Shown here: positions 40,654 to 62,625 of the stretch, piece after piece
Layout of the letters: each line of letters starts with the position of its first letter
Position numbering within the stretch: the first letter of the stretch is position 1
IMG/VR virus record: IMGVR_UViG_3300032294_001260
Source of the DNA: a virus
Taxonomy: Duplodnaviria > Heunggongvirae > Uroviricota > Caudoviricetes
DNA: 64,000 nt
Reading direction: 5' to 3' (one strand)
Notes under the pieces: generated by a model
What the model saw: only the letters and a program-made list of their open reading frames with translations
What the model was told of the DNA's origin: nothing
Database searches by the model: none
Position numbers and translations under genes: made by a program

Positions 40654-41124
40654 CTATATAGCAGAATTCTTTGAAAGTAAAGTTTTATGTTTATTCTTGG
40701 TTCTAATATTACTTTCACGAATTTTTCTTTTTGTTTCCTCTGAATGTTTGCGCCCAATCCTACTTGCAGCCATATTTTTTCTTGCTTGCTCAGTCCTCAT
40801 AGCAACACTTATTCTTTTTCTTGTTTCTTCTGATTTAGGTATACCTTTAGTTGCTTCGCTCAGTTTTCTTTTGTGTTCTTCAGAAAGAACTGCGCCCTTT
40901 CTTCGTTTGTTTGATTCTATTCTTGCTTGCCTTGCAGCCTCAGCAAAAGTAATTTGACCACTCAATGTTTTCCACGCAAGTTTATCTTGCCAACGACCAT
41001 GTTCTTCGAACAACTTCCGATGTGCTTCGGCGTGTTCTTCGACTGTGAGTTCGATAAGATTAGATGGATCGTCTGTTCCTCCCATGTGGCGAGGGACGAT
41101 ATGATGCTTGTGATAAATAGACAT
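40654..41124 (-). CDS. HNH homing endonuclease with NUMOD-like repeats, inserted between gp32 and gp59
   Basis: 156-aa ORF. The HNH core is HHIVPRHMGGTDDPSNLIELTVEEHAEAH. Three NUMOD-like repeats are present (HKRKLSEATKG, EETRKRISVAM, EETKRKIRESN). Confidence 0.8.
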   Translation of the reverse strand: MSIYHKHHIVPRHMGGTDDPSNLIELTVEEHAEAHRKLFEEHGRWQDKLAWKTLSGQITFAEAARQARIESNKRRKGAVLSEEHKRKLSEATKGIPKSEETRKRISVAMRTEQARKNMAASRIGRKHSEETKRKIRESNIRTKNKHKTLLSKNSAI

Positions 41125-41956: not shown

Positions 41957-42189
41957 ATAGGGAGTTTATCCCCTCTAGGTAAAAATCTCATTTTCATGGC
42001 TTCACCTTCAATGATACTTTTGAGTGAGTCGTTGATAAGTGTTGCTGCCATCTCAACTTCAAGATTGTTGCGTTCACAATATGTTGTGACTGCATCTATG
42101 TGATCAATTTTTTCCTCGATGGCCATATTCATGATCATCATAGAAAATTGATTCTTTTCTTCGCGAGTTGTCTTCGATTTAGATTTCAT
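41953..42189 (-). CDS. Small hypothetical protein (the position corresponds to gp33 in the T4 33-59-32 cluster, but no sequence support)
   Basis: 78-aa ORF. Confidence 0.3.
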
Positions 42190-43222
42190 ATGCGTTCAAA
42201 CTGGTATTTAATTGTTGAGTGACACGAACAAACGTAGTTCGCTTTGGAAGTTCCTTGAGTTCAGACGCGCCAACATAAGTGCATGCCGAACGCAGCCCTC
42301 CCAGAATTTCTTGCATCGTATTTGCAACTGGACCTTTGTAGCGAAGTTTTACGTGCTTGCCTTCCGATGCACGGTAATTAGCAACTCCGCCATTATGCAA
42401 ATCCATGGCTGACTTAGAACTCATGCCATAGAAATCAACTAGGCTTTGCCCTTCTAGTGTGTCTGTATATCCAGCGGGCAATCCTTCCTTATGCCCAGCA
42501 AGCATTGATCCGAGCATCACAAAATCGGCACCAGCGGCGAATGCCTTCACCACATCCCCAGCCACCGTGCACCCACCATCAGCAATGATATGACCCTTGA
42601 GACCGTGAGCCGCATCAGCACACTCAATCACCGCGCTCAATTGTGGATAGCCGATTCCCGTCATCTTCCTAGTCGTGCACACCGCCCCTGGACCAATCCC
42701 AACCTTCACAATGTCAACACCAGCGAGGATCAGTTCTTCTGTCATTTCCGCCGTGACAACATTACCAGCAATAAGAATAACGCTGGGATATCGATCACGG
42801 AACTTCTTAATGAAGTCAACAAACGATTGCGTATATCCATTGGCGACATCAATGCAAACGCGCATCAATCGATTACCGACTACGCTATACACGTTGTCAA
42901 ACTTCTGCAAATCACATTCGCTGATACCCAAGGAGTAAATGGAACTTTCCAATTTCTTTGAAAAGTGTTCAATCAAATCAGTATCTTTTTGGTGCTTGGT
43001 GAGTGCAACCATACATCGATGCCTGTTCAATTCGGCATCCATATCAAAAGTGCCGACACCGTCCATATTGGCGGCAATGATTGGAACACCAAACCAAGAA
43101 TTGTAAGATCGGAAAGTAAACAACCTTTCAAGTTTCACTTCACTTCTAGATGACAACGAAGATCGCTTCGGTGTGATCAGAACGTCTTTATAGTCTAACT
43201 TCACATCATCTAGTATACGCAT
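42179..43222 (-). CDS. guaC: GMP reductase (NADPH-dependent, IMPDH/GMPR family)
   Basis: 347-aa ORF, collinear with E. coli GuaC along the full length. [103 protein letters not shown]...[41 protein letters not shown]...GPV.NT...[26 protein letters not shown]. Confidence 0.9.
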
Positions 43223-43228
43223 AAAACC

Positions 43229-43855
43229 TCAATGATAAAAAATATGGTTTCCAATTTGATTTACAACTCTCTTCTCAGTAGCCCATGCTGGGTTTACATA
43301 CGTCGCATGGAAATACTTTGCAGATCCAATTATACCGTAACTTTTCTTTGAAATCAAAATATTCTCGGCAATCTTGTACGATTCATTCCACACAGAACTC
43401 GGACGAATTGTATTCTTTCCTTGGCATACCCAAGAAAATTGACAAGTGTTTCGAGTCCGCTGATAGACAACACCACAAACGGTTCGCGGGAACTCTCTGC
43501 TCTTGACTCGATTCATCGTGACTTCAGCGACAGCGATTTTACCAGCACGAGATTCGGATCCCGCTTCAAAGTAAATGTTCTTTGCAAGACACTCAACTTC
43601 AGTGCGAACTTTGCGCTGCTGATCATAAGACAGATTTAAAAATTCAACTCGACGACTCATGTGATCCAATTGAGACGTTAGAACTTGATTAGTTCTAATC
43701 TGGGCTTCATACATTTCCATCGTTCTGCTGTAGATATTGAATGGGACATAAAGTCCAAAGAATATCATAGCGAACAGCCCGCCCCATAGGCAGAAAAAGT
43801 TGTGATTACGATTAAAAAAGTTTTCTACACTACGAAGTATGTCTACTGCATTCAT
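43229..43855 (-). CDS. Membrane-anchored SleB-type cell-wall hydrolase (Hydrolase_2 family)
   Basis: 208-aa ORF with an N-terminal TM helix (FFCLWGGLFAMIFFGLYVPF). The C-terminal domain is IAVAEVTMNRVKSREFPRTVCGVVYQ...CQFSWVCQG...YFHATYVNPAW, the SleB/CwlJ signature. Confidence 0.75.
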   Translation of the reverse strand: MNAVDILRSVENFFNRNHNFFCLWGGLFAMIFFGLYVPFNIYSRTMEMYEAQIRTNQVLTSQLDHMSRRVEFLNLSYDQQRKVRTEVECLAKNIYFEAGSESRAGKIAVAEVTMNRVKSREFPRTVCGVVYQRTRNTCQFSWVCQGKNTIRPSSVWNESYKIAENILISKKSYGIIGSAKYFHATYVNPAWATEKRVVNQIGNHIFYH

Positions 43856-43879: not shown

Positions 43880-43908
43880 AAAGAAAGGGTGGCGGACCAC
43901 CGCCACCC
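43880..43908 (-). terminator. Rho-independent terminator-like hairpin (GGGUGGCGG-ACCA-CCGCCACCC) followed by a U-rich tract on the minus-strand transcript
   Basis: 9-bp GC stem at 43887-43908. The downstream sequence on the minus strand is UUUCUUUCC, followed by the SD and ATG of the SleB gene. Confidence 0.5.
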
Positions 43909-43914
43909 CCAGGG

Positions 43915-44148
43915 TTACTTACCGTTTGAAATGAACTCGTTTAAGCGTGTTGCTTTTTCGATTACATCATTCTCGGTGAAGTACTCTGGATATTCTGGTA
44001 GTGGTGGCATAGGGCTATTGTGTTCAAGTGCTTGTGAGCATTTCCAATTCCAGATCTCTGAAATTGACGATCTGGCTGTATGATACTCATCATGCAACAT
44101 ATCTTTTGCCAAGGTTACTAACGCTAGTCTAATTTCATATGGTGTCAT
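43915..44148 (-). CDS. Hypothetical protein
   Basis: 77-aa ORF. SD AAAGGAG sits 8 nt upstream. Confidence 0.4.
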   Translation of the reverse strand: MTPYEIRLALVTLAKDMLHDEYHTARSSISEIWNWKCSQALEHNSPMPPLPEYPEYFTENDVIEKATRLNEFISNGK

Positions 44149-44164
44149 AATATTCTCCTTTGTG

Positions 44165-44560
44165 TGTTGTTTGTGTTATGACAAATGGTGCGTTTATTCT
44201 GTTTCCAAGAAAACCCACCGAAAACTCAGGTATTCTAAATCGGCTTAAGCCGCAAGAGCCATGTCGTAAACATCATCGTTTGCGTTTACTTTGTTTGCGC
44301 GAATTACGTTCGTCGCCTTTCGGGTAGCCTTTGGTTTATTACTTGCCCTGTCGAAGCCAAATTCATCCCCGTCGGAAAGCCACCACGTACATTACTGCAG
44401 AGGTGGTGGGCATCTGATAATTTGGTGGAGATGTCGGGGGTCGAACCCGAGTCCAGAACACCTTTAGTCAAAGGTTGACTACCATTATTCCTTTATCCTA
44501 ATAGCGGGCGAGAGAAATCTCTTCGTTTAAGACTGGAGATTACAAGTTTCCAGTCCCCAT
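44165..44560 (-). ncRNA. ssrA: Circularly permuted (two-piece) tmRNA gene. Acceptor piece ~44560-44423, ending ...GGACUCGGGUUCGACCCCCGACAUCUCCACCA. Roughly 50-nt spacer. Coding piece starts at 44370 (GGGGAUGAAUUUGGCUUCGACAGGG...) and contains the tag ORF (resume GCA at 44283 or 44298 through UAA at 44247-44245), encoding (ANKVN)ANDDVYDMALAA. The 3' end of the coding piece is undetermined.
   Basis: Acceptor 3' strand CAUCUCC-A-CCA pairs with 5' GGGGAUG, including G3:U70 and A73 (AlaRS identity). The T-arm UCGGG-UUCGACC-CCCGA matches E. coli tmRNA GGACGCGGGUUCAACUCCCGCCAGCUCCACCA. The coding-piece head matches E. coli GGGGCUGAUUCUGGAUUCGACGGG. The tag ends in ALAA followed by UAA. The CCA-end piece precedes the GGGG 5' end, which is the gene order of permuted ssrA. 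Confidence 0.7.
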
Positions 44561-44749: not shown

Positions 44750-44986
44750 TTATTTAGCCTCGCACCGCGAGAACAAATAGCGTCGTGCCGTGCTCATTTC
44801 TAAGTTCGACAGGAAGCCGTCTCCGTTCTTATCAGCCTGTTTGAACAGGCTCTGAGAGACTGTGCAATACCGATTGATGTCTTCGAAAGATACCTTTCCA
44901 TCCTTATCAAAATCGTATTGTGAGACACGATCTTGAGCAAAGACGGGAGAGGCTGCTAGGGCGAGGGTCAAAATTAGTTTCTTCAT
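44750..44986 (-). CDS. Secreted EF-hand calcium-binding protein (signal peptide + two EF-hand loops)
   Basis: 78-aa ORF. Signal peptide MKKLILTLALAASPVFAQD. Loops DFDKDGKVSFED and DKNGDGFLSNLE match the 12-residue EF-hand consensus. Confidence 0.55.
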   Translation of the reverse strand: MKKLILTLALAASPVFAQDRVSQYDFDKDGKVSFEDINRYCTVSQSLFKQADKNGDGFLSNLEMSTARRYLFSRCEAK

Positions 44987-45108: not shown

Positions 45109-45687
45109 TCAAAGTGCGTTGCTCAGTGTCGCTTCGCCGATCTGGCGGTTGCATGCGCACAGTTCATTCGTCTGAAGTGCATCAAGAACACGCAGTGTCT
45201 CATCAGCATTGCGACCGACATTCAGATTGTTTACGGTCACGTGCTGAATGACATTATCTGGATCGACGATGAACGTTGCACGAAGTGCGGCACCATGCTG
45301 TAGGTCAAATGCTCCAAGTTGATCAACCAGCCCTACAGTCGTTTCTTCGTAGTATTCACTGCCGCGATGTGTATCAGCAAAGAACCAGCAAGTGGTCTTC
45401 TTCAAGCCCTCATGTACATTCTTCCAAGCCAACTTGCAAAACTCGTTGTCGGTCGAACCGATGAGTAGAACTGCATCACGATCAGTGAACTCCTTGTTCA
45501 ACTCGTCGTAGGCAAGAATTTCTGTGGGGCACACAAAAGTGAAGTCCTTCGGATAAAACACGAAGATCTTCCACTGTCCAAAAAATGATGTTTCATCGAT
45601 GGTTTCAAATGCATCGTCGGGTGTGAGGGCACCAGGCTTTACGCCAGTGATGGTAAATTTTGACAACTTATGTCCAACTGTTTTCAT
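45109..45687 (-). CDS. Peroxiredoxin, typical 2-Cys AhpC/TSA family
   Basis: Contains FFYPKDFTFVCPTE (peroxidatic Cys) and a C-terminal resolving Cys region. Collinear with E. coli AhpC. The start is taken at the internal ATG (45687) preceded by AAGGAG, not at the table start 45792. Confidence 0.85.
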   Translation of the reverse strand: MKTVGHKLSKFTITGVKPGALTPDDAFETIDETSFFGQWKIFVFYPKDFTFVCPTEILAYDELNKEFTDRDAVLLIGSTDNEFCKLAWKNVHEGLKKTTCWFFADTHRGSEYYEETTVGLVDQLGAFDLQHGAALRATFIVDPDNVIQHVTVNNLNVGRNADETLRVLDALQTNELCACNRQIGEATLSNAL

Positions 45688-45735
45688 AGTCAACTCCTTT
45701 TCGTTTAAACTCCATAAAAATTCTTCATACGTCAT

Positions 45736-45900
45736 ATCAAGCAACAATATTGTATTGTTCGCGGAGAATCTTCTTGTATGGTTTGCCTTCAACCATCAAC
45801 TGCTCAACCAACTTCAGTCGGTCGGCGATGTCTGCAACGCCAGCCTTCTCCAGAGCAACCACAATGATTCGAAGTTCATCAATAGTAATGGGCAGATCCA
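45736..45900 (-). CDS. Small hypothetical protein (54 aa, MDLPITIDELRIIVVALEKAGVADIADRLKLVEQLMVEGKPYKKILREQYNIVA)
   Basis: Hand-found ORF with SD GAGGTG. It replaces the spurious N-terminal extension of the peroxiredoxin ORF. Confidence 0.3.
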
Positions 45901-51927: not shown

Positions 51928-52005
51928 TCACTATAAGAATATTATGCCTAATTCTTGCTAAAAACGCAACAGGAAAAACTCTAATGAAATCAACTACTTA
52001 CGAGA
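51928..52005 (-). promoter_or_regulatory. Early-promoter cassette copy 2 (TTGCGT-17-CATAAT)
   Basis: taatcactataagaatattatgcctaattcttgctaaaaacgcaacaggaaaaactctaatgaaatcaactacttac. Confidence 0.5.
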
Positions 52006-52201
52006 ATGAAAGACGCTGGCGTTCGCCAATTTTCCAAACAGCAGCAACTTCATCGTAGTCCAAACGCAATGGAAGAGAGTTTTTATCGGCGGCGACCCAT
52101 GTCATTTTATGGGGGCTAACCTCGTATCTCGTCACTTCAAAATCCATAGTATAGCCGCTTTTGAAAACGACTCGCAACTTGAATACAGTTTCGAATGTCA
52201 T
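51998..52201 (-). CDS. Small hypothetical protein (67 aa, MTFETVFKLRVVFKSGYTMDFEVTRYEVSPHKMTWVAADKNSLPLRLDYDEVAAVWKIGERQRLSFS)
   Basis: C-terminal in-frame part of table ORF 51998..52414, starting at the internal ATG. The ATG overlaps the stop of paralogue 2 (TAATG). Confidence 0.45.
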   Translation of the reverse strand: MTFETVFKLRVVFKSGYTMDFEVTRYEVSPHKMTWVAADKNSLPLRLDYDEVAAVWKIGERQRLSFS

Positions 52202-52491
52202 TAGATCCTCTCCGCTTTGTTGATGCGGTTGATCACATACGCTGCCATCTGCTCCGCAACCTCCGCCGCCGACGTCGCCGTCCCCGTCGCCGAAACGACC
52301 TGTACGACCCTCGCAGCCCACTCCGCCCATGCCGCATCCGCCCCCACAACCTCCGCCGAATACGCCGCCGCCTTCGCCGCCTCTGGTGTGCGCTCCTTGC
52401 ACATGGTCTTCCAAGCATCACCATAGCCGCGTTCGTCTGCAAAGGACTGATGCTGCTCAAGACGCGCCCACATCTTTTTAAGGTCACTCAC
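52201..52491 (-). CDS. Paralogue 2 of the GC/Ala-rich family
   Basis: MSDLKKMWARLEQHQSFADERGYGDAWKTMCKERT... with Ala-rich centre and the ...INKAERI C-terminus. Confidence 0.55.
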   Translation of the reverse strand: MSDLKKMWARLEQHQSFADERGYGDAWKTMCKERTPEAAKAAAYSAEVVGADAAWAEWAARVVQVVSATGTATSAAEVAEQMAAYVINRINKAERI

Positions 52492-52763
52492 GGCTTTATC
52501 TCCCTCATCGTGTCGATGGCGAGTTCGCTATATTGGTCAACCCTCGCCGCAGCAGCCGCCACCGCAGCCCTCGCTTCTGCCGCAGCCCTCGCAAACCACG
52601 CCGCTTCCGACGCCTCGAACGCGCCCGCCGCAGCCGCTGCCTGCCATGCCTCCCACGCAGTATCAGCCGTTCGCTTTCGGCACATTTTGCGCCACGCTTT
52701 AGCGTACTTGGACTTCGGCTTGTGCGCTTCCAGCACCGCCCACATTGTGTCAAGATTAGTCAT
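52488..52763 (-). CDS. Paralogue 3 of the GC/Ala-rich family
   Basis: Internal ATG of table ORF 52488..52970: MTNLDTMWAVLEAHKPKSKYAKAWRKMCRKRT.... TAATG overlap with paralogue 4. Confidence 0.5.
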   Translation of the reverse strand: MTNLDTMWAVLEAHKPKSKYAKAWRKMCRKRTADTAWEAWQAAAAAGAFEASEAAWFARAAAEARAAVAAAAARVDQYSELAIDTMREIKP

Positions 52764-53047
52764 TAGATGTTCTCCGCTTTGTTGATGAAACAAATCGCTT
52801 CCGCCGCCGAATACGCCGCCGATGCCGCAGCCCTCGCCGCCCACGCCGCATTCGCCGCATACGCCGCACCCGCCGCCCACGCCTCCCTCGCCTCCTCCCA
52901 CGCCTCCCTCGCCTCCCTCGCCGCCGCCTCCGCTGCCTTTGGTGTGCGCTCTTCGCACATCCGCTTCCATTTCTTTCCATAGCCGCGCTCATCTGCGATC
53001 GGCTGGTGTTCTGCGAGACGAATCCACATTGTGTCAAGATTAGTCAT
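52763..53047 (-). CDS. Paralogue 4 of the GC/Ala-rich family
   Basis: MTNLDTMWIRLAEHQPIADERGYGKKWKRMCEERT...AAEAICFINKAENI. Confidence 0.55.
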   Translation of the reverse strand: MTNLDTMWIRLAEHQPIADERGYGKKWKRMCEERTPKAAEAAAREAREAWEEAREAWAAGAAYAANAAWAARAAASAAYSAAEAICFINKAENI

Positions 53048-53349
53048 TAGATGTTCTCCGCTTTGTTGATGTACCAGATCGCGTCTTCTGCATACTCAAC
53101 CAGAGACCCCGTTGTCGCAGCCCACGCCATCATCGCCGCATCCGCAGCCGAGCGCAACCTAGCCTTCTGCGCTGATGCCCCAGCCCACGCCGCATCCAAC
53201 GCTGCGGCTTTTAACGTCGCTCCCGCAATTGTTGCTACATCTGGTGTGCGCTCTTGGCACATTGTGCGCCAAACATCGCCGTAACCACCAGCATCGGCAA
53301 AGGACTGATGCTGCGCGAGACGAGTCCACATTTCGTTAAGGTTTGTCAT
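53047..53349 (-). CDS. Paralogue 5 of the GC/Ala-rich family
   Basis: MTNLNEMWTRLAQHQSFADAGGYGDVWRTMCQERT...AIWYINKAENI. The start is taken at the ATG behind the cassette SD. TAATG overlap with paralogue 4. Confidence 0.55.
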   Translation of the reverse strand: MTNLNEMWTRLAQHQSFADAGGYGDVWRTMCQERTPDVATIAGATLKAAALDAAWAGASAQKARLRSAADAAMMAWAATTGSLVEYAEDAIWYINKAENI

Positions 53350-53356
53350 TGTTAGT

Positions 53357-53436
53357 TCCTTGTTAATCACTATAAGAATATAGTGCCTAATTCTTACTAA
53401 AAACGCAACAAGAAAAACTCTAATGAAATCAATGAC
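53357..53436 (-). promoter_or_regulatory. Early-promoter cassette copy 3
   Basis: taatcactataagaatatagtgcctaattcttactaaaacgcaacaagaaaaactctaatgaaatcaatgacttag. Confidence 0.5.
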
Positions 53437-53811
53437 TTAGACAATCCCGAGTTTTGCATTCATCTCGTTGATTTCTTCTGGGGTGGCGATCTTCAATGCG
53501 CTAGGTCGCTGCTGCTTGATTCGCAACATCCGCTGAGATCCAGCCTTAAGGCGCTTGGCTTCTGCCTTGGCAGCACGCGCAGCCGCTTTTTCAGCACGCT
53601 TCGCCTCACGCGCTGCCTTCACAGCCGCACGATGATCTTCCTTCACGATGCGATCTATCCGCGTCTCGCGGCGAATCTCGGCGCGGAGAGCACTCTGCAT
53701 CTGTCGCGACACCTTAATCGCCTCGCGAGTCGCCTTTATGGCACCGATCATATCCTTCACAACCTGACGCTCACGAGCCAGATTCGCCTTCATTTCGTTA
53801 AGACTACTCAT
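53437..53811 (-). CDS. Basic coiled-coil protein (Lys/Arg/Ala-rich, histone H1-like composition)
   Basis: 124-aa ORF. RAAVKAAREAKRAEKAAARAAKAEAKRLKAG. Confidence 0.45.
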   Translation of the reverse strand: MSSLNEMKANLARERQVVKDMIGAIKATREAIKVSRQMQSALRAEIRRETRIDRIVKEDHRAAVKAAREAKRAEKAAARAAKAEAKRLKAGSQRMLRIKQQRPSALKIATPEEINEMNAKLGIV

Positions 53812-54116
53812 GGCTTTACCACTGTGATCGCGTCGATGGCGCGTTGAGCGTCGTAGTCAGTCATCGCCGCCTTGACTGTCGCATCCGCCGCAAAAGTCGC
53901 CGCCCGATTCGCCCACGACGCCTCCGCCGCAACCTTCCCAGCCTTCGCCGAATACGCCGCGTTCGCTGCAACCATCGCCGCATCCGCCGCAGCCCTCCCC
54001 GCTTTAACGGTGCGCTCCTTGCACATTGTTTTCCACGCATCTCCATAGCCTCGCCTGTCTGCGATAGGCTGATGTTGCGCAAGATGGTTCCACATTTCGT
54101 TTACAGTAAGACCCAT
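53808..54116 (-). CDS. Paralogue 6 of the GC/Ala-rich family
   Basis: MGLTVNEMWNHLAQHQPIADRRGYGDAWKTMCKERT.... Confidence 0.55.
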   Translation of the reverse strand: MGLTVNEMWNHLAQHQPIADRRGYGDAWKTMCKERTVKAGRAAADAAMVAANAAYSAKAGKVAAEASWANRAATFAADATVKAAMTDYDAQRAIDAITVVKP

Positions 54117-55687: not shown

Positions 55688-55761
55688 TGGTAGCGGGGGA
55701 TGGAATTGCACCACCGACCCTCGGATTATGAGTCCGATGTTCTGCTACTGAACTACCCCGC
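55688..55761 (-). tRNA. tRNA with anticodon CAU (Met or Ile2/lysidine type); 6-bp GC acceptor stem, unusual T-loop UGCAAUU
   Basis: Hand-folded. D-arm GUUC/GAAC. Anticodon arm UCGGA-CUCAUAA-UCCGA. T-stem GGUGG/CCAUC. Ends ...CCCCCGCUACCA. Confidence 0.5.
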
Positions 55762-55865
55762 AATTTTATTCTTTTGCTGCTTTTTCTTCCCGAAGATGCG
55801 TTCCCAGTTCTCATCAAACTGTTTTCTGGGAACACTCAGCGGTCTAGGCTTACTACCCTTTCCGC

Positions 55866-56438
55866 TCACGCCGCTTTCCTCCAGACTCGACTGGTCTTTG
55901 GAATGCTTGCCTTCAAGAATTCCATTTGGTCCGCAAGAACCTTTCGATTCTTCAAAAGAATTCTTTCATGCACTGTTGGTGCATACGGAACATAGAGCAG
56001 ATGCATCTTTGCTTCTTCTGGTGTCTTCCAGCCCTTACGATGATTGCACACACGGCATGCAGTCACACAGTTTGACCAGTAATTCTTACCGCCGCGTGAC
56101 TTTGGCAGCACGTGATCGATGGTCAATTGGCTAGTGTTGAATTCATCACCACAATATGCGCAGATGTACTGATCGCGGGCATACAGCGTCATACGATCAG
56201 CGAACACAGTCTGTGTGTTGTAAAACTTGTCGCCAAGAATAGGACCACTCACACCGATGATTGACGAAATGTCAATCCGTGATTGTTCTCCATACTGGTT
56301 GTATCCACCCAGCATGGTCTTCAATTTTTCGCCGAGTTCCCAAACGACCTTTTCCTTTGCGTAATAGCAAGCAGCGATTTCAAAATCGCACCAGTCTTTT
56401 GGAGCACCACCCTTGTCTACAACCAATACCAATGACAC
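55866..56438 (-). CDS. HNH endonuclease (McrA-like; DHVLPKSRGG...NCVTACRVCNHRKG), GTG start
   Basis: 190-aa ORF. SD AAGGAG sits 9 nt upstream of the GTG. It is preceded by TATAAATA (56469-56476, minus strand). Confidence 0.7.
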   Translation of the reverse strand: MSLVLVVDKGGAPKDWCDFEIAACYYAKEKVVWELGEKLKTMLGGYNQYGEQSRIDISSIIGVSGPILGDKFYNTQTVFADRMTLYARDQYICAYCGDEFNTSQLTIDHVLPKSRGGKNYWSNCVTACRVCNHRKGWKTPEEAKMHLLYVPYAPTVHERILLKNRKVLADQMEFLKASIPKTSRVWRKAA

Positions 56439-56468
56439 GACACAATCTCCTTCAATTTAACATCACAA

Positions 56469-56476
56469 TATTTATA
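56469..56476 (-). promoter_or_regulatory. TATAAATA late-promoter-like motif upstream of the HNH gene
   Basis: The plus strand reads tatttata. Confidence 0.35.
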
Positions 56477-56510
56477 TTATAAATCTAAATTTATTAAAAA
56501 TCAAGCAATA

Positions 56511-57641
56511 TTAATTTTCACCCTTTTTGGCTACTGCAATACCATTGTTGTGTTCAACGGCGAAATTACCCGCTCTTTCAATGTTTGGACCGCCGCCCTT
56601 AAATTTAAGGCCAGCAATAACACCCCGATTTTCTGGAATACCGTGGATGGCTTTGTCTAAATGACGGTGATCATGTTCGTCGCCATCAATAACGGGATAT
56701 GATTTACCAGTTTCTTCATCATGAACATGTGTCGGAAGTGGAGTTGATGATTTTTTACCGCGTGATGGAATGTTAAATGCCATCGCCGCAACACCACCTC
56801 TATCTAGATGTCTACGAACTTGATTCCAATTACTTTCGTCGTGATTCAATCCAGTTGATGATAGGGTAAGATGATAATTTGATGGCTTTCTTTTATGATT
56901 AGTTCTACCAGCAATTTTAGTATAATCATAGAATGAAACGTCGCCATGCTTTTCAAATAATTTTGGTGCTAGATGTTCATGAGGAATATCTGACAAAACA
57001 TTTAAACGAACTGCAAGTTTTTTACCCTTTCTAGTCGCAGTTTTCTTTGCATTCTCAATTTCATTGTCGAGTTTAGCGTAAAACAAATGTGGGTGATCGA
57101 AGAATTTGAGTGTTTTGTTGATACGTCCGCGACGTACATTTGACATTGTACCGCGACCCGCAGCAGATCCTAAGCAAGCAGCCTTACATTCTTTTGATGC
57201 TGCTGGGCACACATCAATACCAGACATGGTTGACGGTGCCAGTGACAGAGCCTTAGTAGTATATTCTGGAATCTTTTCACCAGACTTGGCTAACTTTGGA
57301 TTCGATGCTTCGTTCCCCAAAAGATTCCCTTCTCCGAGAACTCTCTTCGCTTCTGTTCTCATTGCTCGCTGTTCTTCTGGAGAAGCATTAAAATATTTTT
57401 CCGCCCCCTCACGAACTTTATGCCAGTGATTCCCGCCCTCTTCACTCGGTGAAGGAATGCCGCTAGATGGGGTGGTTGGATGTTCTGATGCAACATGAAC
57501 ATTAGGATTTTCAACCTTTATGGGAATATCGGTCAATTTCATCTCATCAAGAACGCCCTCAAACAAAGAAATGAAATTATCCATTTCAAAAGAGAATTCT
57601 TTGAGTTCTTTTTCGACAATATATTGCTTAAATCCTAACAT
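56511..57641 (-). CDS. Hypothetical protein with Cys cluster (GIDVCPAASKECKAACLGSAAGRG) and His-rich C-terminal region
   Basis: 376-aa ORF. Confidence 0.45.
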   Translation of the reverse strand: MLGFKQYIVEKELKEFSFEMDNFISLFEGVLDEMKLTDIPIKVENPNVHVASEHPTTPSSGIPSPSEEGGNHWHKVREGAEKYFNASPEEQRAMRTEAKRVLGEGNLLGNEASNPKLAKSGEKIPEYTTKALSLAPSTMSGIDVCPAASKECKAACLGSAAGRGTMSNVRRGRINKTLKFFDHPHLFYAKLDNEIENAKKTATRKGKKLAVRLNVLSDIPHEHLAPKLFEKHGDVSFYDYTKIAGRTNHKRKPSNYHLTLSSTGLNHDESNWNQVRRHLDRGGVAAMAFNIPSRGKKSSTPLPTHVHDEETGKSYPVIDGDEHDHRHLDKAIHGIPENRGVIAGLKFKGGGPNIERAGNFAVEHNNGIAVAKKGEN

Positions 57642-57699
57642 TTGAAGGCACCTTTAGTTAAGGGGATGAGTATTTTATATTTATGTTTTTCCCGTTTTA

Positions 57700-57936
57700 T
57701 CAGAAAGATATGGCCAAAACGGTCAGTTGTTTGGACGCAGTTTGGCCTTCTCCGATATAGAGACTTTCTGGAGAATTCCACTGGGTAGGTGACGCTTGGA
57801 CGTTGTTTTCTTTTAAAAATTTGATCAAATCGTCTACTTTTTCGGATTCCACCGAAATGTAGGCTTCGCTTAGATTGACTGCGCTGATCTGATCAATTAG
57901 ATCTAAAACGTTCTGATATTCCATAATATACTCCAA
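57700..57936 (-). CDS. Hypothetical protein
   Basis: 78-aa ORF. Confidence 0.35.
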   Translation of the reverse strand: MEYIMEYQNVLDLIDQISAVNLSEAYISVESEKVDDLIKFLKENNVQASPTQWNSPESLYIGEGQTASKQLTVLAISF

Positions 57937-57939
57937 GAA

Positions 57940-58263
57940 CTATTGAATATGGTTGTATTTAGCATATTCCTTTGTCATGTATATTTGGAGCGCGTCCAGC
58001 AATTTTACAATTCTATGTCTTTGATTGTTGCCCGTTAGTTCTAGTGTTTCATTCCTTAGAGTACCGAGAATTAATAGAACATCTCGGCCAGAAATTTGCT
58101 GTTTTCTTATTTGTGTGAGCAAATTTCTATATGCTCGGGCTTGAGGATAGACTTTTTCGTTGGGGACTCCAGATGAGGACGCCCCCCTATTCTCTAAGGC
58201 ATCACATAGCATGTCTATGTGAGGTTGTAAGTCTTCGAATTTGAATTTTTTTGTTTCTGTCAT
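57940..58263 (-). CDS. Hypothetical protein (start taken at the internal ATG 58263, because the table start 58302 lies inside tRNA-Arg)
   Basis: MTETKKFKFEDLQPHIDMLCDALENRG.... Confidence 0.4.
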   Translation of the reverse strand: MTETKKFKFEDLQPHIDMLCDALENRGASSSGVPNEKVYPQARAYRNLLTQIRKQQISGRDVLLILGTLRNETLELTGNNQRHRIVKLLDALQIYMTKEYAKYNHIQ

Positions 58264-58268
58264 AAAAG

Positions 58269-58344
58269 TGGCGCGGATGGAGAGATTCGAACTCCCGACC
58301 ATCAGGTTCGAAGCCTGAGTCTCTATCCACTGAGTTACATCCGC
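58269..58344 (-). tRNA. tRNA-Arg (anticodon UCG)
   Basis: GCGGAUG/CAUCCGC acceptor. Anticodon arm UCAGG-CUUCGAA-CCUGA. T-arm GGGAG-UUCGAAU-CUCUC. G73 and CCA are encoded. Confidence 0.75.
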
Positions 58345-58357
58345 GTTATGTTTTAAA

Positions 58358-58433
58358 TGGTGCCCTCGACAGGATTCGAACCTGTGTTTTTCAGTTTAGG
58401 AAACTGATGCCTTATCCACTAGACTACGAAGGC
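58358..58433 (-). tRNA. tRNA-Arg (anticodon CCU)
   Basis: GCCUUCG/CGAGGGC acceptor. Anticodon arm UCAGU-UUCCUAA-ACUGA. T-arm ACAGG-UUCGAAU-CCUGU. CCA encoded. Confidence 0.75.
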
Positions 58434-58600
58434 GATGGTCCCCACTTACCGACGGGGCACATTGTCGTTTTCCATTGAGTTTTTAATTTGAGAATGCATC
58501 CGCATTTAGAGCAAACACCGATTTTATTGTGTTCGCATTTTTGGCAAATTGCCAATCTTTGATTCTTGACTTCTTCAGAAGCGATTCTACTATCAAACAT
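58424..58600 (-). CDS. Small Cys-rich protein (58 aa, MFDSRIASEEVKNQRLAICQKCEHNKIGVCSKCGCILKLKTQWKTTMCPVGKWGPSPS); the 3' end overlaps tRNA-Arg(CCU) by ~10 nt
   Basis: Hand-found ORF between two tRNA genes. SD AGGAT. Confidence 0.3.
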   Translation of the reverse strand: MFDSRIASEEVKNQRLAICQKCEHNKIGVCSKCGCILKLKTQWKTTMCPVGKWGPSPS

Positions 58601-58613
58601 ATACGATCCTAAA

Positions 58614-58688
58614 TGGTGCGGAAAGAGGGATTCGAACCCTCATCATCGGTTTGGAAGACCGACATAATAGCCCTTATACGATTTCCGC
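58614..58688 (-). tRNA. tRNA-Gly (anticodon UCC)
   Basis: GCGGAAA/UUUCCGC acceptor. Anticodon arm UCGGU-CUUCCAA-ACCGA. T-arm GAGGG-UUCGAAU-CCCUC. A73, CCA. Confidence 0.75.
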
Positions 58689-58708
58689 ATCTTTTGCCAA
58701 ACTCTGCG

Positions 58709-59350
58709 TTAATCCCATTTAATTTTTCTACCTAATTCCCAACCATATGGAAGTGGATCGTTTTTGTTGATTCTAATACTATTTTTTAAACTTTTATTGT
58801 GAATCCACATTTTACCGTATTGAGAATTTTTGCTCCCTTTAGAAGATATTGCCAGTTTTTCGCTGATTTTCTTTTTACTTTCTTCCGTATGCTTTTTACC
58901 TTTCCAATTGGGGGCAGATATTTTTCTTTCCTTATGCCATATTTTTAATCTTGTTGATACAGATTCATTTAGTTTTTTTCTGTATGTTGGATCAGTATTC
59001 ACTTTTTGCATGTGGAGTGATTTTTTACCATTCTCAACCTTCCAAGATTGGTCAATTAAAGAATTTACATAATCAAACCCACCGAAGCCACCTTTCTTGA
59101 GATTGTATGTATTGTTTTCACTAATGAATTCTTCAGTAACTATCTCGGCTTCTTTAGCAAACATATCTTCTGGATTATCAAATACAAACAGAATTTCTTT
59201 TTTGAAATTCTCGATACCATATTTTTGTATGGCGTATTTCAAATACTTCCCAGAACCCAAATAATCGTCATTCAGTTCAACGGTCTTATGAGTTCCAATA
59301 TAGAACTTGCCATTGACCTGATTTGTCGTCTTATAAACGATATAGAACAT
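58709..59350 (-). CDS. GIY-YIG homing endonuclease (Seg-like) within the tRNA cluster
   Basis: 213-aa ORF. N-terminus YIVYKTTNQVNGKFYIGTHKT matches the GIY-(10-11)-YIG signature. Lys-rich C-terminal DNA-binding region. Confidence 0.75.
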   Translation of the reverse strand: MFYIVYKTTNQVNGKFYIGTHKTVELNDDYLGSGKYLKYAIQKYGIENFKKEILFVFDNPEDMFAKEAEIVTEEFISENNTYNLKKGGFGGFDYVNSLIDQSWKVENGKKSLHMQKVNTDPTYRKKLNESVSTRLKIWHKERKISAPNWKGKKHTEESKKKISEKLAISSKGSKNSQYGKMWIHNKSLKNSIRINKNDPLPYGWELGRKIKWD

Positions 59351-59372
59351 AGGAATCTCCTGTTACTATATG

Positions 59373-59380
59373 TATTTATA
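59373..59380 (-). promoter_or_regulatory. TATAAATA late-promoter-like motif about 20 nt upstream of the GIY-YIG gene (followed by SD AGGAGA)
   Basis: The minus strand reads TATAAATACATATAGTAACAGGAGATTCCTATG. Confidence 0.4.
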
Positions 59381-59410
59381 AAAGTTCGAGCCTTGACGGA
59401 GGCTCATGTG

Positions 59411-59484
59411 TGCGAGTGGTGGGATTCGAACCCACACTTTTGAGATTTTAAGTCTCATGCCTCTGCCGATTGCGCTACACTCGC
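59411..59484 (-). tRNA. tRNA-like gene with anticodon UAA (Leu-type anticodon) but a 5-nt variable loop and weak D-stem; A73; CCA not encoded
   Basis: GCGAGUG/CACUCGC acceptor. D-loop has A14 and G18G19. Anticodon arm UGAGA-CUUAAAA-UCUCA. T-arm GUGGG-UUCGAAU-CCCAC. Confidence 0.4.
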
Positions 59485-59492
59485 CAAAAATT

Positions 59493-59568
59493 TGGTCAAG
59501 GTGAGAGGACTCGAACCTCCAACTTCGACGCCCCAAACGTCGCACTCTACCAATTGAGTTACACCCTG
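59493..59568 (-). tRNA. tRNA-Pro (anticodon UGG)
   Basis: C1-G72 acceptor CAGGGUG/CACCUUG. Anticodon arm CGACG-UUUGGGG-CGUCG. T-arm GGAGG-UUCGAGU-CCUCU. A73, CCA. Confidence 0.7.
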
Positions 59569-59607
59569 ATTTTTGTATCATACTACATTTATATAGCAAA
59601 GTCAAAC

Positions 59608-59683
59608 TGGTGGGACCACTAGGATTTGAACCTAGAATCAAAGAATTATGAGTTCTCTGCATTGACCGTTATGCTATAGTCCC
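59608..59683 (-). tRNA. tRNA with anticodon CAU (Met or Ile2)
   Basis: GGGACUA/UGGUCCC acceptor. D-stem GCAU/AUGC. Anticodon arm GAGAA-CUCAUAA-UUCUU. T-arm CUAGG-UUCAAAU-CCUAG. A73, CCA. Confidence 0.65.
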
Positions 59684-60084
59684 AAAACTTTTCTTGAAAT
59701 AATACCATGTGCGACATCACGTTCTTTATCATATCTTTCTGGATCTAACATCGGATATAGATGCTTTGTTCCATTCGGTTTTATATCAAATTGAGAACCC
59801 ATCGGGACAAGATGTTTAGTGTGCAATTTTCTGAATTCTGTTTCATCCACAACAACTGGTTCACCTATCGTAACAGCACCTATCGCTTTAGCCTTTCCTT
59901 CTCCAGTTTTTACGATGGAAACTCGTTTACCGATATAAGGCTTAAGAGAATTTGTATCGCGAGTTTCATAATATTTTTCACCGTCTACAATTTTATCTGC
60001 ATACGATATACCAGCCTCGGTGTCGCTTCTTACGTTAATACCTATATCTGAATTTTCTTTAATGAAAGATTTAAAGGAAAGCAT
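59674..60084 (-). CDS. Hypothetical protein, possibly ASCH/PUA-like fold
   Basis: 136-aa ORF. Weak pattern only. The 3' end overlaps the tRNA at 59608-59683 by ~10 nt. Confidence 0.3.
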   Translation of the reverse strand: MLSFKSFIKENSDIGINVRSDTEAGISYADKIVDGEKYYETRDTNSLKPYIGKRVSIVKTGEGKAKAIGAVTIGEPVVVDETEFRKLHTKHLVPMGSQFDIKPNGTKHLYPMLDPERYDKERDVAHGIISRKVLGL

Positions 60085-60116
60085 GGTGATAAATCCTCAA
60101 AAATAACTCCAGATAT

Positions 60117-60710
60117 TTATCTAAGAGTCTTTGAATGAATTGTATACCACTTCTTGTCAATCGGATTCATGTGAAACAGTCCAATATAATTCGAGTCCAC
60201 CGTTTCAACGATCTCGATCTTTTTGATATTGTCGAGAACGTAATACTTCCTTCCGTTTTTGACGACAAGAATCATATGCATCTCATCTGCATACGCATTA
60301 ACTTTCACCAGAGTGATATACATCATCGAGTTCGGGATTCCCAAACTTAAGAGTTCTTTTCTTTTAGACAAAACAAAGTCATCGCAATCACCACTCGCCG
60401 AATAGAAAAAATCAATTTTCCTATCACCGAGGGTTGATGTCCACCTATCCATTTTCCCATACTTGGGTTTGTCGGCGGCGAATCGAAACTGGTTATATTT
60501 AAAATTGACTTTGTGCAAAATCGGTAGAAGTTCCTCTTCTTTAAATTTCACGGGCTTCGATGTGTCAATTTCATCGCTGCAAGATGGATCATTTGATCCT
60601 TCTAGTTGACAATATTCAACCCATTGATAGGGAACTTCGACCGTTTTCGCAGAAATTTCCCCGACGGGAAAAAGGAGCAGTGCTGCAAAAAGTTTGTGAT
60701 ACTTCTTCAT
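60117..60710 (-). CDS. Secreted transglutaminase-like cysteine peptidase (BTLCP family; GDCDDF motif)
   Basis: The start is taken at MKKYHKLFAALLLFPVGEISA (signal peptide) with SD AAGGTAAGG. Motif is DRWTSTLGDRKIDFFYSASGDCDDFVLSKRKELLSLGIP...ADEMHMILVV. Confidence 0.55.
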   Translation of the reverse strand: MKKYHKLFAALLLFPVGEISAKTVEVPYQWVEYCQLEGSNDPSCSDEIDTSKPVKFKEEELLPILHKVNFKYNQFRFAADKPKYGKMDRWTSTLGDRKIDFFYSASGDCDDFVLSKRKELLSLGIPNSMMYITLVKVNAYADEMHMILVVKNGRKYYVLDNIKKIEIVETVDSNYIGLFHMNPIDKKWYTIHSKTLR

Positions 60711-60770
60711 ACCCCTTACCTTATCACATTTGACCAGAAAAGTAAAGGGTGAATTGAAAAATGATAGAAT

Positions 60771-60862
60771 TGGTGCTCCCGCTTGGACTTGAACCAAGAC
60801 TAACCGCTAATCTGGCGAATCGGGATTATAAGTCCCGTCGTGCTACCTTACACTACAGGAGC
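60771..60862 (-). tRNA. Class II (long variable arm, ~17 nt) tRNA with apparent anticodon UAU; A73; CCA encoded
   Basis: GCUCCUG/CGGGAGC acceptor. 3-bp D-stem with G18G19. Anticodon arm CGGGA-CUUAUAA-UCCCG. Extra arm UCGC-CAGAUUA-GCGG. T-arm CUUGG-UUCAAGU-CCAAG. Confidence 0.5.
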
Positions 60863-60959
60863 GAATGGCGGAAGGCAGTGTACTCGAAACACATCCCCGA
60901 AGAAACCATCTGTTTAGCAAACAGCGACAGATCCTCTCTGCTTTACCTTCCAATTAAAT

Positions 60960-61169
60960 TTATTTATCCTCAACACAAGCCTTTGGTTTACCATCAGTGT
61001 CAACAAGAGCAGTTACGGCAACACCCTTTCCGCTGTTGATGATGACATACTTGGTCCCCTCGATACACCGCACAGTGTATCCATTCGCTGTGCTGCTAAT
61101 AGTGTCTTCAAAGCCACCACAACCAGAGAGTAGGGCGAGGATAGAAAAACTGACCAGAATCTTTTTCAT
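60960..61169 (-). CDS. Small lipoprotein (lipobox LLSGC)
   Basis: 69-aa ORF MKKILVSFSILALLSGCGG.... Confidence 0.5.
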   Translation of the reverse strand: MKKILVSFSILALLSGCGGFEDTISSTANGYTVRCIEGTKYVIINSGKGVAVTALVDTDGKPKACVEDK

Positions 61170-61188
61170 ATTATATTCCTTTCAAAAG

Positions 61189-61262
61189 TGGAGCGGGTAG
61201 CGAGAATCGAACTCGCACGATAACCTTGGCAAGGTCACAGGCAACCATTACATCATACCCGC
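61189..61262 (-). tRNA. tRNA-Gly (anticodon GCC)
   Basis: GCGGGUA/UACCCGC acceptor. Anticodon arm UGACC-UUGCCAA-GGUUA. T-arm CGAG-UUCGAUU-CUCG. U73, CCA. Confidence 0.65.
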
Positions 61263-61268
61263 AAAAAC

Positions 61269-61344
61269 TGGTGCATGGTGTAGGACTCGAACCTACATGA
61301 TTCACCGTGTAAAGGTGACGCTTAACCTCTCAGACCAACCATGC
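61269..61344 (-). tRNA. tRNA-Val (anticodon UAC)
   Basis: GCAUGGU/ACCAUGC acceptor. Anticodon arm UCACC-UUUACAC-GGUGA. T-arm GUAGG-UUCGAGU-CCUAC. A73, CCA. Confidence 0.7.
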
Positions 61345-61350
61345 ATAAAC

Positions 61351-61427
61351 TGGTGCCCTCGGACAGATTCGAACTGTCACTGATTAGTTCCTAAGACTAA
61401 CGCCTCTGCCAGTTGGGCTACGGGGGC
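61351..61427 (-). tRNA. tRNA with anticodon UAG (Leu-type anticodon) but class I body (5-nt variable loop); A73
   Basis: GCCCCCG/CGAGGGC acceptor (one C:A mismatch). Anticodon arm UUAGU-CUUAGGA-ACUAA. T-arm GACAG-UUCGAAU-CUGUC. Confidence 0.5.
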
Positions 61428-61434
61428 ATAAAAA

Positions 61435-61522
61435 TGGCGGAGATTGATAGCATCGAACTATTACCGATTTCTCAGTACTACGATTTTCAAGACCGTTCGA
61501 GGAGCCAACCTCAGCAATCTCC
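61435..61522 (-). tRNA. tRNA-Ser (anticodon UGA), class II
   Basis: GGAGAUU/AAUCUCC acceptor. G73. Anticodon arm ACGGU-CUUGAAA-AUCGU. Long extra arm. T-arm UAGUUCGAUGCUA. Confidence 0.7.
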
Positions 61523-61531
61523 GTGTTAAAA

Positions 61532-61607
61532 TGGCGCGCTCGGCAGGATTCGAACCTGCGTCATTCTGCTTAGAAGGCAGATGCCTTATCCACTAGACTA
61601 CGAGCGC
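61532..61607 (-). tRNA. tRNA-Arg (anticodon UCU)
   Basis: GCGCUCG/CGAGCGC acceptor. Anticodon arm UCUGC-CUUCUAA-GCAGA. T-arm GCAGG-UUCGAAU-CCUGC. G73, CCA. Confidence 0.75.
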
Positions 61608-61622
61608 ATTAAACTTTATTTA

Positions 61623-62426
61623 TTACTTCTTACCGCTAAACATCAGAGCATCGAAGTTCGCGGGAACAACAATGGTCTGAACCTTGCCATCGCGAATGCC
61701 TTCGCTGATGTTGATCATCGCCATTGCTTGCATGTACTCAACAGCGCCCTTGTTGGCGTTAAGAGCAGCAATACGTTCTGCTTCCTTCTTTGCAGTTTCG
61801 ACTTCTACTTCCTTCTTCTTCAATTCATTCTGTGCGCGAACCAATTCGTTTGCGCTCGCGACAATATTGTCTGCGGGCAGAATGCTGCGAACAAGAATCT
61901 GCTGAACTACAATCGAACCGTCCAACTTTTCTTCGGCGAGAGAAGAAATCATGCTCTCACGAATTTCCTGCTCAATCTGAGCACGATTGTCATTCATCTT
62001 CAGCGACTCGTACCTGCGAGCACTCTTGTATGCTGCATTGCGAGCAACCTGAAACACATAATTGTACATCAAAAGGATATCGCCTTCCTCAGTTGCAGAG
62101 TGGAAACTGCGATTCTTGTTGACATAGAGTTCAGCAACACTCTGAGGATTGATGCTGTAAACCACAGCCATGTCAAAGTCCTTGACGGTGCTGTTATCAC
62201 TTGCCAGCGGAGTCATGTTGGAAACGTTGACCTGAACATCCTTGACGGGGAAGGTCAAAACATCGCCAATCAAAACCTGATTGAATGAGCCAGGGAGCAA
62301 TTCGCCTTGCTGAACCTGCTTGTCAAACCCAACTCGAACCCCGACTTCACCAGTCTCAATACGAGTACAACCCGTAAGAGCAAGGCTAACGGCGGTGACA
62401 ATCGACACAGTAGCAAAATATTTCAT
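61623..62426 (-). CDS. SPFH/band-7 (prohibitin/HflC-like) domain lipoprotein
   Basis: 267-aa ORF. Lipobox LALTGC. Band-7 core (IETGEVGV...LLPGSFNQV...DMAVVYSINPQSVAELYV) and a C-terminal coiled coil. Confidence 0.6.
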   Translation of the reverse strand: MKYFATVSIVTAVSLALTGCTRIETGEVGVRVGFDKQVQQGELLPGSFNQVLIGDVLTFPVKDVQVNVSNMTPLASDNSTVKDFDMAVVYSINPQSVAELYVNKNRSFHSATEEGDILLMYNYVFQVARNAAYKSARRYESLKMNDNRAQIEQEIRESMISSLAEEKLDGSIVVQQILVRSILPADNIVASANELVRAQNELKKKEVEVETAKKEAERIAALNANKGAVEYMQAMAMINISEGIRDGKVQTIVVPANFDALMFSGKK

Positions 62427-62436
62427 ATTGTTCCTC

Positions 62437-62625
62437 TTAGAAAATTAAAACAAATGTAGTCAAAAATAAAACTGTCAGTACAGAACAAAGTATACTGTAT
62501 CCAACGAGTTTAGTCAACTCCAATTTTTGCTTTTTGGTTGTACTTCGGAATGCTTGAATGCCGAAGAAGAATCCACCAAAAATAAGAAGAAATGCTAACA
62601 AAATTTTAAACATAAAAAACTCCAT
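62437..62625 (-). CDS. Small hydrophobic membrane protein (2 TM)
   Basis: 62-aa ORF MEFFMFKILLAFLLIFGGFFFGIQAF.... Confidence 0.4.
   Translation of the reverse strand: MEFFMFKILLAFLLIFGGFFFGIQAFRSTTKKQKLELTKLVGYSILCSVLTVLFLTTFVLIF

Follow-up and report, generated by a model that had tools for sequence, protein, structure and literature searches.

The DNA examined here, 64,000 nucleotides (nt) of the IMG/VR virus record IMGVR_UViG_3300032294_001260 (Caudoviricetes; the whole stretch is called the window below), carries on its minus strand a candidate gene for a transfer-messenger RNA (tmRNA) whose parts stand in circularly permuted order, that is, an acceptor piece, a spacer and then a coding piece. 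Read 5' to 3', the minus strand gives UAAUGGUAGUCAACCUUUGACUAAAGGUGUUCUGGAC, the T-arm UCGGG-UUCGACC-CCCGA, the string CAUCUCC-A-CCA, a spacer of 52 nt and GGGGAUGAAUUUGGCUUCGACAGGG. ARAGORN calls a permuted gene ('tmRNA*') at 44154-44515 on this strand, with the tag ANDDVYDMALAA. In a search with the covariance models of Rfam 15, the model RF04321 (tmRNA_permuted) matches over its whole length (model positions 1-213 of 213) with 138.9 bits (E = 3.4e-27; gathering score 47 bits), and RF01850 (beta_tmRNA) does so as well (positions 1-331 of 331, 108.5 bits, E = 4.5e-32; gathering score 84 bits). RF01850 is the top lineage-specific model, the alpha and cyano models scoring lower and being dropped in clan competition. 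A permuted two-piece tmRNA in a phage genome is what a preliminary description, made from the letters of this stretch, had proposed; ARAGORN and Rfam, both of them tools that the description had named, bear it out.

The order of the two modules is also as had been described. The 3' tRNA-like module (44448-44423) occurs once in the window, where 0.00 copies are expected by chance, and it sits upstream of the sole exact 5' module (44370-44350, GGGGAUGAAUUUGGCUUCGAC). Because no second copy of the 3' module lies downstream, a conventional one-piece gene, which the preliminary description had named as a finding that would refute it, is excluded. Homology with viral relatives begins sharply at AAUGGUAGU (~44486) and extends to ~44187; the gene thus lies where it was first placed, yet within narrower limits than the 44560-44165 given at the time. 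The acceptor piece (~64 nt, 44423-44486) is delimited by this start of homology, by the Rfam alignments and by four paired and covarying helices (helices 1-4); the spacer (44371-44422) by a covarying hairpin, by folding and by identity within the clade; and the coding piece (~184 nt, 44187-44370, its 3' end being approximate) by ARAGORN, Rfam, covariation and co-folding. It had further been said that both modules are near-copies of the E. coli tmRNA termini, which is overstated: in a BLAST search against 5,426 E. coli genomes, the alignment with ssrA is limited to ~45 nt of the 3' module at 82% identity.

Viral relatives were taken from IMG/VR, where a first pattern scan retrieved 49 contigs of this arrangement and a later one 100; of the 100, 99 receive a permuted tmRNA call from ARAGORN. 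An explicit structure of 56 base pairs was scored on 35 distinct sequences, with controls in which the pairing partners were slid by 1-3 columns. Paired cells make up 92.0% in the structure and 36.7-47.2% in the slid controls. The number of pairs changed on both sides is 31, against 11.7±2.3 in shuffles, and none of 500 shuffles reaches 31. Substitutions among the relatives, being compensatory or synonymous, preserve all structural elements. In the GenBank phage set, BLAST with the gene (521 nt, distant mode) and with 24 kb around it (near mode) found no match; when E values up to 10 were allowed, matches were confined to ~45-nt stretches of the tRNA-like domain (TLD), and many matches in GenBank phages are ~35-nt attachment-site-like fragments of the tmRNA 3' end.

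The tRNA-like domain is assembled from both pieces (all coordinates of the gene are on the minus strand). In the acceptor piece, the 5' strand of P2b (GGUAGU, 44483-44478, preceded by an invariant AU) and the P2a strand (44460-44454) are followed by the T-arm (44450-44434, UCGGGUUCGACCCCCGA; a 5-base-pair (bp) stem with a 7-nt loop), the acceptor 3' strand CAUCUCC (44433-44427), the discriminator A (44426) and the encoded CCA (44425-44423). The coding piece starts with the acceptor 5' strand GGGGAUG (44370-44364) and supplies the 3' strands of P2a (44350-44344) and P2b (44328-44323). GGGGAUG and CAUCUCC form seven pairs including G3:U70, then come A and CCA. The acceptor helix is 100% paired among the relatives and position 3:70 is UG in 35 of 35, so the perfect pairing with its G3:U70 wobble, pointed out early on as the identity element for alanyl-tRNA synthetase (AlaRS), holds throughout. 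With the 7-bp stem, G3:U70, the discriminator A and CCA, the alanine identity set is complete as read from the sequence, and charging by AlaRS is predicted. In helices 1-4 (acceptor stem, T-arm, P2a and P2b), pairing reaches 98.6-100% and compensatory changes occur: the T-arm and P2b are both 100% paired, with two pairs and four of six pairs, respectively, changed on both sides, and P2a is 98.6% paired, again with four of six. Identity with the 34 relatives is 0.94 within the acceptor piece and 0.59 in the flank. Co-folding of the two pieces gives a free-energy difference (ddG) of -16.1 kcal/mol, compared with -8.8±3.2 kcal/mol for shuffled acceptor pieces. The fold of the single sequence recovers the acceptor stem, the T-arm, the spacer hairpin, the hairpin of pseudoknot 1 (PK1) and P5.

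In the coding piece, PK1 (44297-44322) consists of the hairpin GCG-A-CGAA/UUCG-CGC, whose loop pairs over 2 bp (CG) with an upstream CG. Its hairpin (helix 7) is 91.6% paired, with five of seven pairs changed on both sides, and the two pairs of its second stem (helix 6) both covary, this stem being 92.8% paired. Given the shortness of that stem, the hairpin is more secure than the pseudoknot as a whole, which is the weakest among the features that we accept here. The tag frame called by ARAGORN (44245-44283) reads GCA AAC GAU GAU GUU UAC GAC AUG GCU CUU GCG GCU UAA, from the resume codon GCA at 44283-44281, exactly where the preliminary description had placed it, to the stop UAA at 44247-44245, and its translation is ANDDVYDMALAA*, with the end ALAA. 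The columns of U-5 and A-4 before the resume codon (44288-44287; columns T203/A204) and those of the GCA itself (G208-A210) are invariant in the alignment. Among the 13 unique tag open reading frames (ORFs) of the clade, the AND... start and the ...(A/P)LAA end are kept, third positions vary synonymously (Leu CTT/CTC/CTA, Ala GCT/GCG/GCC), changes in length involve whole codons only and UAA is invariant. Judging from these substitutions, the tag frame is clearly under translational selection. The middle of the tag differs widely between related phages (DVYDM, DYYEM, DSFTPM, SNYDM, AYYDQELP), and the AND... and ...LAA ends stay fixed. The earlier characterization of the tag as gamma/beta-like fits as well, beta_tmRNA being the best lineage-specific model.

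The stop codon lies in the loop of the P5 hairpin CGGC-UUAA-GCCG (44241-44252). P5 scored low in the covariation test because MAFFT misaligned it; when 39 unique sequence contexts were folded one by one, the stop codon was enclosed in a hairpin in all 39. At the position of PK2 there is a 3'-terminal pseudoknot (44188-44230), seen by covariation, with the conserved loop GGAAACAGAA. Its S1 pairs CC-GAG with CUUGG, and its S2 pairs GUG-GUUU with AAAC-CAC. S2 is 93% paired, four of its seven pairs are changed on both sides, and relatives carry the variants GACC:GGUC, GACUCA:UGAGUC and GGUAGGU:ACCUACC. Most permuted tmRNAs of viruses carry the AACAGA motif, which also appears in the consensus of the Rfam model alpha_tmRNA.

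The spacer is structured, too. Its 7-bp hairpin CCACCAC/GUGGUGG (44409-44403 with 44386-44380) has 99.2% of cells paired and six of seven pairs changed on both sides; Rfam treats the region as an unstructured loop. Among 38 unique spacers from all viral genes, folded independently, 79% have z < -2, and the folded part usually runs from just past CCA to 4-5 nt ahead of G1. Within the close clade, identity is 0.90 in the spacer, 59% in the 5' flank and 75% in the tag. We infer that the spacer is excised during maturation and that its hairpin acts as a processing scaffold. Being as conserved as the mature RNA, and covarying, the spacer could be a dedicated scaffold of this kind or a separate small RNA rather than filler.

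By computation, selection acts on the gene order, the alanine identity elements, the joining helices, the resume context and the tag. On this evidence from sequence, the gene is very probably a genuine and functional circularly permuted ssrA of a T4-like phage, and the two-piece tmRNA that it encodes belongs structurally to the 'beta' type.

Downstream of the tmRNA, by ~40 nt, an ORF of 77 amino acids (aa; MTPYEIRLALV...) with an AAGGAG ribosome-binding site occupies 43915-44148 (-), for which no Pfam or PHROGs family match was found. No terminator lies between them, and this ORF probably shares a transcript with the tmRNA; the first intrinsic terminator downstream of the tmRNA, an 11-bp GC-rich stem with a T-run, is at 43885-43910 (-). 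Most relatives have an equivalent terminator directly behind the tmRNA tail. The ORF was considered as a specific insertion between tmRNA and terminator, but homologs directly follow the tmRNA in 13 related loci, including the divergent locus L051, and lie 0.8-3 kb from it in six others, so it is better regarded as a variable neighbor. Matches to a T4-late-like promoter (GATAAAGG) are weak, were found by eye and are inconsistent across relatives. On the other side of the gene, between the stop of a 52-aa ORF (44569) and the tmRNA, a 7-bp hairpin GACUGGA-(11 nt)-UCCAGUC is found at 44531-44555 (-). With only two U's behind it, this hairpin is atypical for a terminator; it may mark a site of processing or attenuate transcription that reads through into the tmRNA. 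Other genes near the tmRNA, all on the minus strand, encode an enzyme of the IMPDH/GMP-reductase family (42179-43222), a SleB-type cell-wall hydrolase (43229-43855), a small EF-hand protein whose N-terminus is hydrophobic and signal-peptide-like by eye (44750-44986), and an AhpC/TSA peroxiredoxin (45109-45792).

The genome is T4-like, with gp32, gp59, a gp33-type late-transcription coactivator, PhoH, a PD-(D/E)XK exonuclease and baseplate genes, and its gp32 is 55-56% identical to those of the cyanophages P-SSM2 and P-SSM5 and of the Methylophilales phage Melnitz. The same phage is present in two environmental metagenome assemblies (ENA ERZ28593791 and Logan ERR2848542). Between gp59 and gp32 lies an ORF resembling HNH/NUMOD3 homing endonucleases (40654-41124, -), for which gene calling in two metagenome assemblies containing this phage gave lengths of 156 and 143 aa. 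Fifteen tRNA genes, all on the minus strand, are located at 55688-63594; this tRNA bank and a GOLLD RNA are 11-19 kb from the tmRNA. The tRNA-Ile(UAU) at 60771-60862 is unusually long (92 nt). The GOLLD RNA (RF02032, 63196-63660, -), full-length at 218.1 bits against a gathering score of 150, ends the bank, and the tRNA-Lys(UUU) at 63523-63594 is embedded in its variable region. A GC-rich island at 52001-54000 (57% GC against ~42% elsewhere in the window) has a strong negative GC skew, holds only small minus-strand ORFs (<=160 aa) and gave no Rfam match.

Genes of this class are known from phages. Among 18,146 phage genomes, Buchholz et al. (2022) detected 402 that have tmRNA genes; of the 133 unique forms, 53 are two-piece by ARAGORN, and 50 of these 53 come from marine or aquatic phages (PMC9004378). 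In their Table S1, Mendera, Moby and YB07, phages of Stenotrophomonas, appear as 'Permuted' (PMC9004378), and the 2025 tmRNA database, which created RF04321, holds 79 unique phage sequences (PMC11915505). The view taken in the preliminary description, that permuted tmRNAs had hardly, if at all, been reported from phages, was therefore wrong, given these 53 forms, the phages Melnitz and DLP_6 and the ~100 IMG/VR contigs; phage genes of this class have been on record from 2022 at the latest, one of them at the same locus of a related phage.

That related phage is Melnitz (Kyanoviridae, MZ577097; PMC9004378), a T4-like aquatic myovirus whose gp32 is 55% identical to that of the window. It has a permuted tmRNA by ARAGORN and RF04321, located, as in the window, between PhoH and the PDDEXK exonuclease on one side and the gp33 coactivator, gp59 and gp32 on the other. 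Its gene order (PhoH, PDDEXK nuclease, two small ORFs, tmRNA, coactivator, gp59, and gp32 a few genes on) is that of the window apart from a few genes inserted in the latter. The Melnitz tag, ANDNYVPVDYALAA, is of the same AND...ALAA style, its 3' pseudoknot resembles that of the window in its loop ...AAACAGAA..., and no SmpB is reported for Melnitz. The two genes differ in that the tRNA-like domain of Melnitz is alpha-type (RF01849, 106.7 bits; T-loop GGGGGCAGUACCC) while that of the window is beta-type (RF01850), and in that the Melnitz spacer has 159 nt and is accompanied by a 3' glutamine riboswitch while the window has neither a spacer of that length nor a riboswitch; they share no similarity at the DNA level. 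Rfam gave no riboswitch match at E <= 1. Assignment to the alpha_tmRNA subtype (RF01849) was rejected for the window, whose T-arm is UCGGGUUCGACCCCCGA and not the alpha form GGGGGCnGUACCC and which lacks the glutamine riboswitch.

The cultured Stenotrophomonas phage vB_SmaS-DLP_6 (KU682439) has a beta-type gene like that of the window (RF01850 103.7 bits, RF04321 136.8 bits), called tmRNA* by ARAGORN with the tag ANDDSFAPMAIAA, which is nearly identical to ANDDSFTPMALAA of the window's IMG/VR clade. Its acceptor piece begins with AUGG.UGU, and its spacer is a hairpin followed by a UUGAU leader, both of which resemble the window. In both large phage genomes the tmRNA is accompanied by a tRNA bank, which it adjoins in DLP_6; the tRNA-Ile-TAT of DLP_6, near its tmRNA, is also 92 nt long (4882-4973 of the locus that we term L145). 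On the other hand, the DLP_6 gene is only ~55% identical to that of the window, its spacer has 31 nt, its 3' pseudoknot differs in sequence and lacks the AACAGAA loop, and DLP_6 is a soil phage with a gammaproteobacterial host. The DLP_6 tmRNA (L145:2951-3294; KU682439.2, ~102807-103150) has no feature annotated in the GenBank record, and a hypothetical coding sequence, AAY80_156 (L145:3278-3448), overlaps the final ~17 nt of the ARAGORN call.

Two-piece tmRNAs of the beta lineage of bacteria are said to have been first described by Sharkady & Williams in 2004. In their Rfam model, RF01850, they share with the window the acceptor-piece start AUGGUUGU, P2, a standard T-loop, the PK1 hairpin and a tag of the form ANDE/D..F/Y.ALAA. 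The 9-bp hairpin at the 3' terminus of RF01850 has no match in the window, where a pseudoknot stands instead; the alignment forces this hairpin onto P5 of the window, with mismatches and low posterior probability. The consensus spacer of RF01850 is also shorter (~32 nt vs ~52 nt), and its embedded sigma-70 promoter (UUGA..UAuAAU) has no counterpart in the window. Among one-piece tmRNAs (RF00023), that of Neptuniibacter has the same T-loop and acceptor, a 32-nt 3' module differing only at wildcard positions, a similar tag (ANDDNYALAA) and a matching resume context and P5. It is unlike the gene of the window in its non-permuted order, its four pseudoknots and its ~360 nt in one piece. A pattern scan of 185,579 bacterial genomes, keyed on the T-arm and acceptor module of the window and silent on the origin of the permuted form, gave 41 matches. 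ARAGORN finds a tmRNA in 38 of these 41 (Neptuniibacter and others), all one-piece, so that no permuted counterpart was found among the bacterial genomes that share this module exactly.

As predicted from its sequence, the gene most likely encodes an ordinary two-piece tmRNA that relies on the RNase P, AlaRS and SmpB of the host for the rescue of stalled ribosomes. One precursor RNA would be transcribed, probably through the 77-aa ORF, and would end at the terminator at 43910-43885. The spacer hairpin may keep the CCA end and G1 together, as in a pre-tRNA; host RNase P would then cleave 5' of G44370, and host nucleases would trim to the encoded CCA, with the 64-nt and ~184-nt pieces remaining base-paired. 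Host AlaRS would add alanine, and host SmpB and EF-Tu would deliver the RNA to ribosomes stalled on broken mRNAs. Translation would resume on the tag frame and append ANDDVYDMALAA, and host proteases (ClpXP-type, with recognition of ...LAA) would degrade the tagged product. For the phage, the gain may be translation capacity at a time of host mRNA degradation, of shut-off of host ssrA or of RNA cleavage by defence nucleases, and the tmRNA may complement the phage's own bank of 15 tRNAs. Such a benefit agrees with earlier proposals (PMC9004378, PMC12656738). Ribosome rescue and tagging for proteolysis, the roles put forward in the preliminary description, are the usual hypotheses for such an RNA.

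Several observations weigh against this interpretation. The tmRNA of the window has two pseudoknots only (PK1 and the 3' pseudoknot), and tmRNAs typically carry four (PMC11915505). The joint folding that the preliminary description had pointed to for P2 answered in part: the two pieces do co-fold, but the thermodynamic fold alone misses P2 and favors a non-conserved alternative, so that the support for P2 rests on covariation. The minimum-free-energy fold instead forms a hairpin UAGUCAA/UUGACUA within the acceptor piece and a 12-bp pairing of GGUGUUCUGGA with the region after P5; we reject both as functional folds, given that neither is conserved while P2a and P2b covary. Upstream of the tmRNA, no sigma-70-like promoter was found on its strand. 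A tblastn search with E. coli SmpB as the query found no SmpB in the 64-kb window (best E = 2.2), so that the function of the tmRNA would depend on a compatible SmpB of the host. The benefit to the phage is itself a conjecture.

The absence of an SmpB gene from the window and the reduction of the pseudoknot set to two could also be read as signs of an RNA that binds host SmpB, AlaRS or ribosomes and so blocks trans-translation by the host, as a decoy or inhibitor of the kind proposed for mycobacteriophage DS6A. According to Hudson et al. (2014; PMC4131195), a molecule made up of the TLD alone is a strong inhibitor of tmRNA, and titration of SmpB may be the reason. Unlike in DS6A, however, the window has a complete tag frame clearly under selection, with synonymous changes, whole-codon insertions and deletions, an invariant resume context and stop and the ...ALAA end, and PK1 and P5 are kept; a pure decoy needs neither these two elements nor a tag. 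With a full selected tag frame present, the gene falls outside the class of TLD-only decoys, and we regard an inhibitory role as very unlikely. Selection on the tag leaves a different question, whether a functional tmRNA might be kept chiefly for its phage-specific tag, the mid-tag ..DVYDM.. redirecting the fate of proteins and rescue being secondary. The wide variation of the mid-tag between fixed AND... and ...LAA ends would suit this, and selective tagging of host proteins for recycling was raised by Buchholz et al. (PMC9004378). No SspB- or ClpP-like gene was found in the 64-kb window by tblastn with the E. coli sequences. Moreover, tmRNA cannot select its substrates, as trans-translation acts on any stalled ribosome, and the conserved elements of the tag are those that, reportedly after Flynn et al. 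in 2001, are recognized by SspB/ClpX-type machinery in E. coli. A special purpose of the tag thus seems to us somewhat less probable even than a decoy.

The gene could also be a passenger or relic, that is, ssrA DNA without function that the phage took from a host, for example by integrating at ssrA. Integration is common at tmRNA genes, and prophages do contain pieces of ssrA (PMC9004378, PMC12656738), and the ~35-nt attachment-site-like 3' fragments among the GenBank phage matches are in line with this. In the window, however, the gene is complete with both pieces and lies within a block of T4-like replication and late-transcription genes; it is kept across ~100 viral contigs with compensatory and synonymous changes; no decaying relatives with broken stems or a frameshifted tag were seen among them; and all 38 tmRNA genes in bacterial genomes with the same tRNA-like module are one-piece, none being permuted. 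We consider a relic the least probable of these alternatives, and a tmRNA that works with the host machinery in ribosome rescue remains the preferred explanation.

Because the same beta-type gene occurs in a phage of a gammaproteobacterium and no permuted bacterial twin was found, 'beta-type' does not identify the host. It is conceivable, though in our judgment unlikely, that beta-type permuted ssrA forms a phage-resident lineage among T4-like phages, independent of the form of the host tmRNA, and is not a recent loan from betaproteobacteria. Consistent with such a lineage, the same type of gene with a nearly identical tag motif is found in a Stenotrophomonas phage, whose host presumably has a one-piece tmRNA, and Melnitz has an alpha-type gene at the locus that it shares with the window.

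Standard programs (ARAGORN, Rfam) pick up this gene, and it leaves the understanding of tmRNA unchanged. Together with its ~100 metagenomic relatives, it is a well-supported addition to the few two-piece tmRNAs on record from phages. Annotation and experiments should both profit from its compact architecture of two pseudoknots in a mature RNA of ~250 nt, from the covarying spacer hairpin, which Rfam models as unstructured, and from the unannotated tmRNA of DLP_6, a cultured phage and thus a tractable system for the function of phage tmRNA. The locus from PhoH and the exonuclease to gp33-gp59-gp32 in cyanophage-like T4 phages can hold an alpha- or a beta-type ssrA, and if the gene is indeed part of a phage-resident lineage, permuted ssrA genes of bacteria could have been carried by phages or even have come from them.

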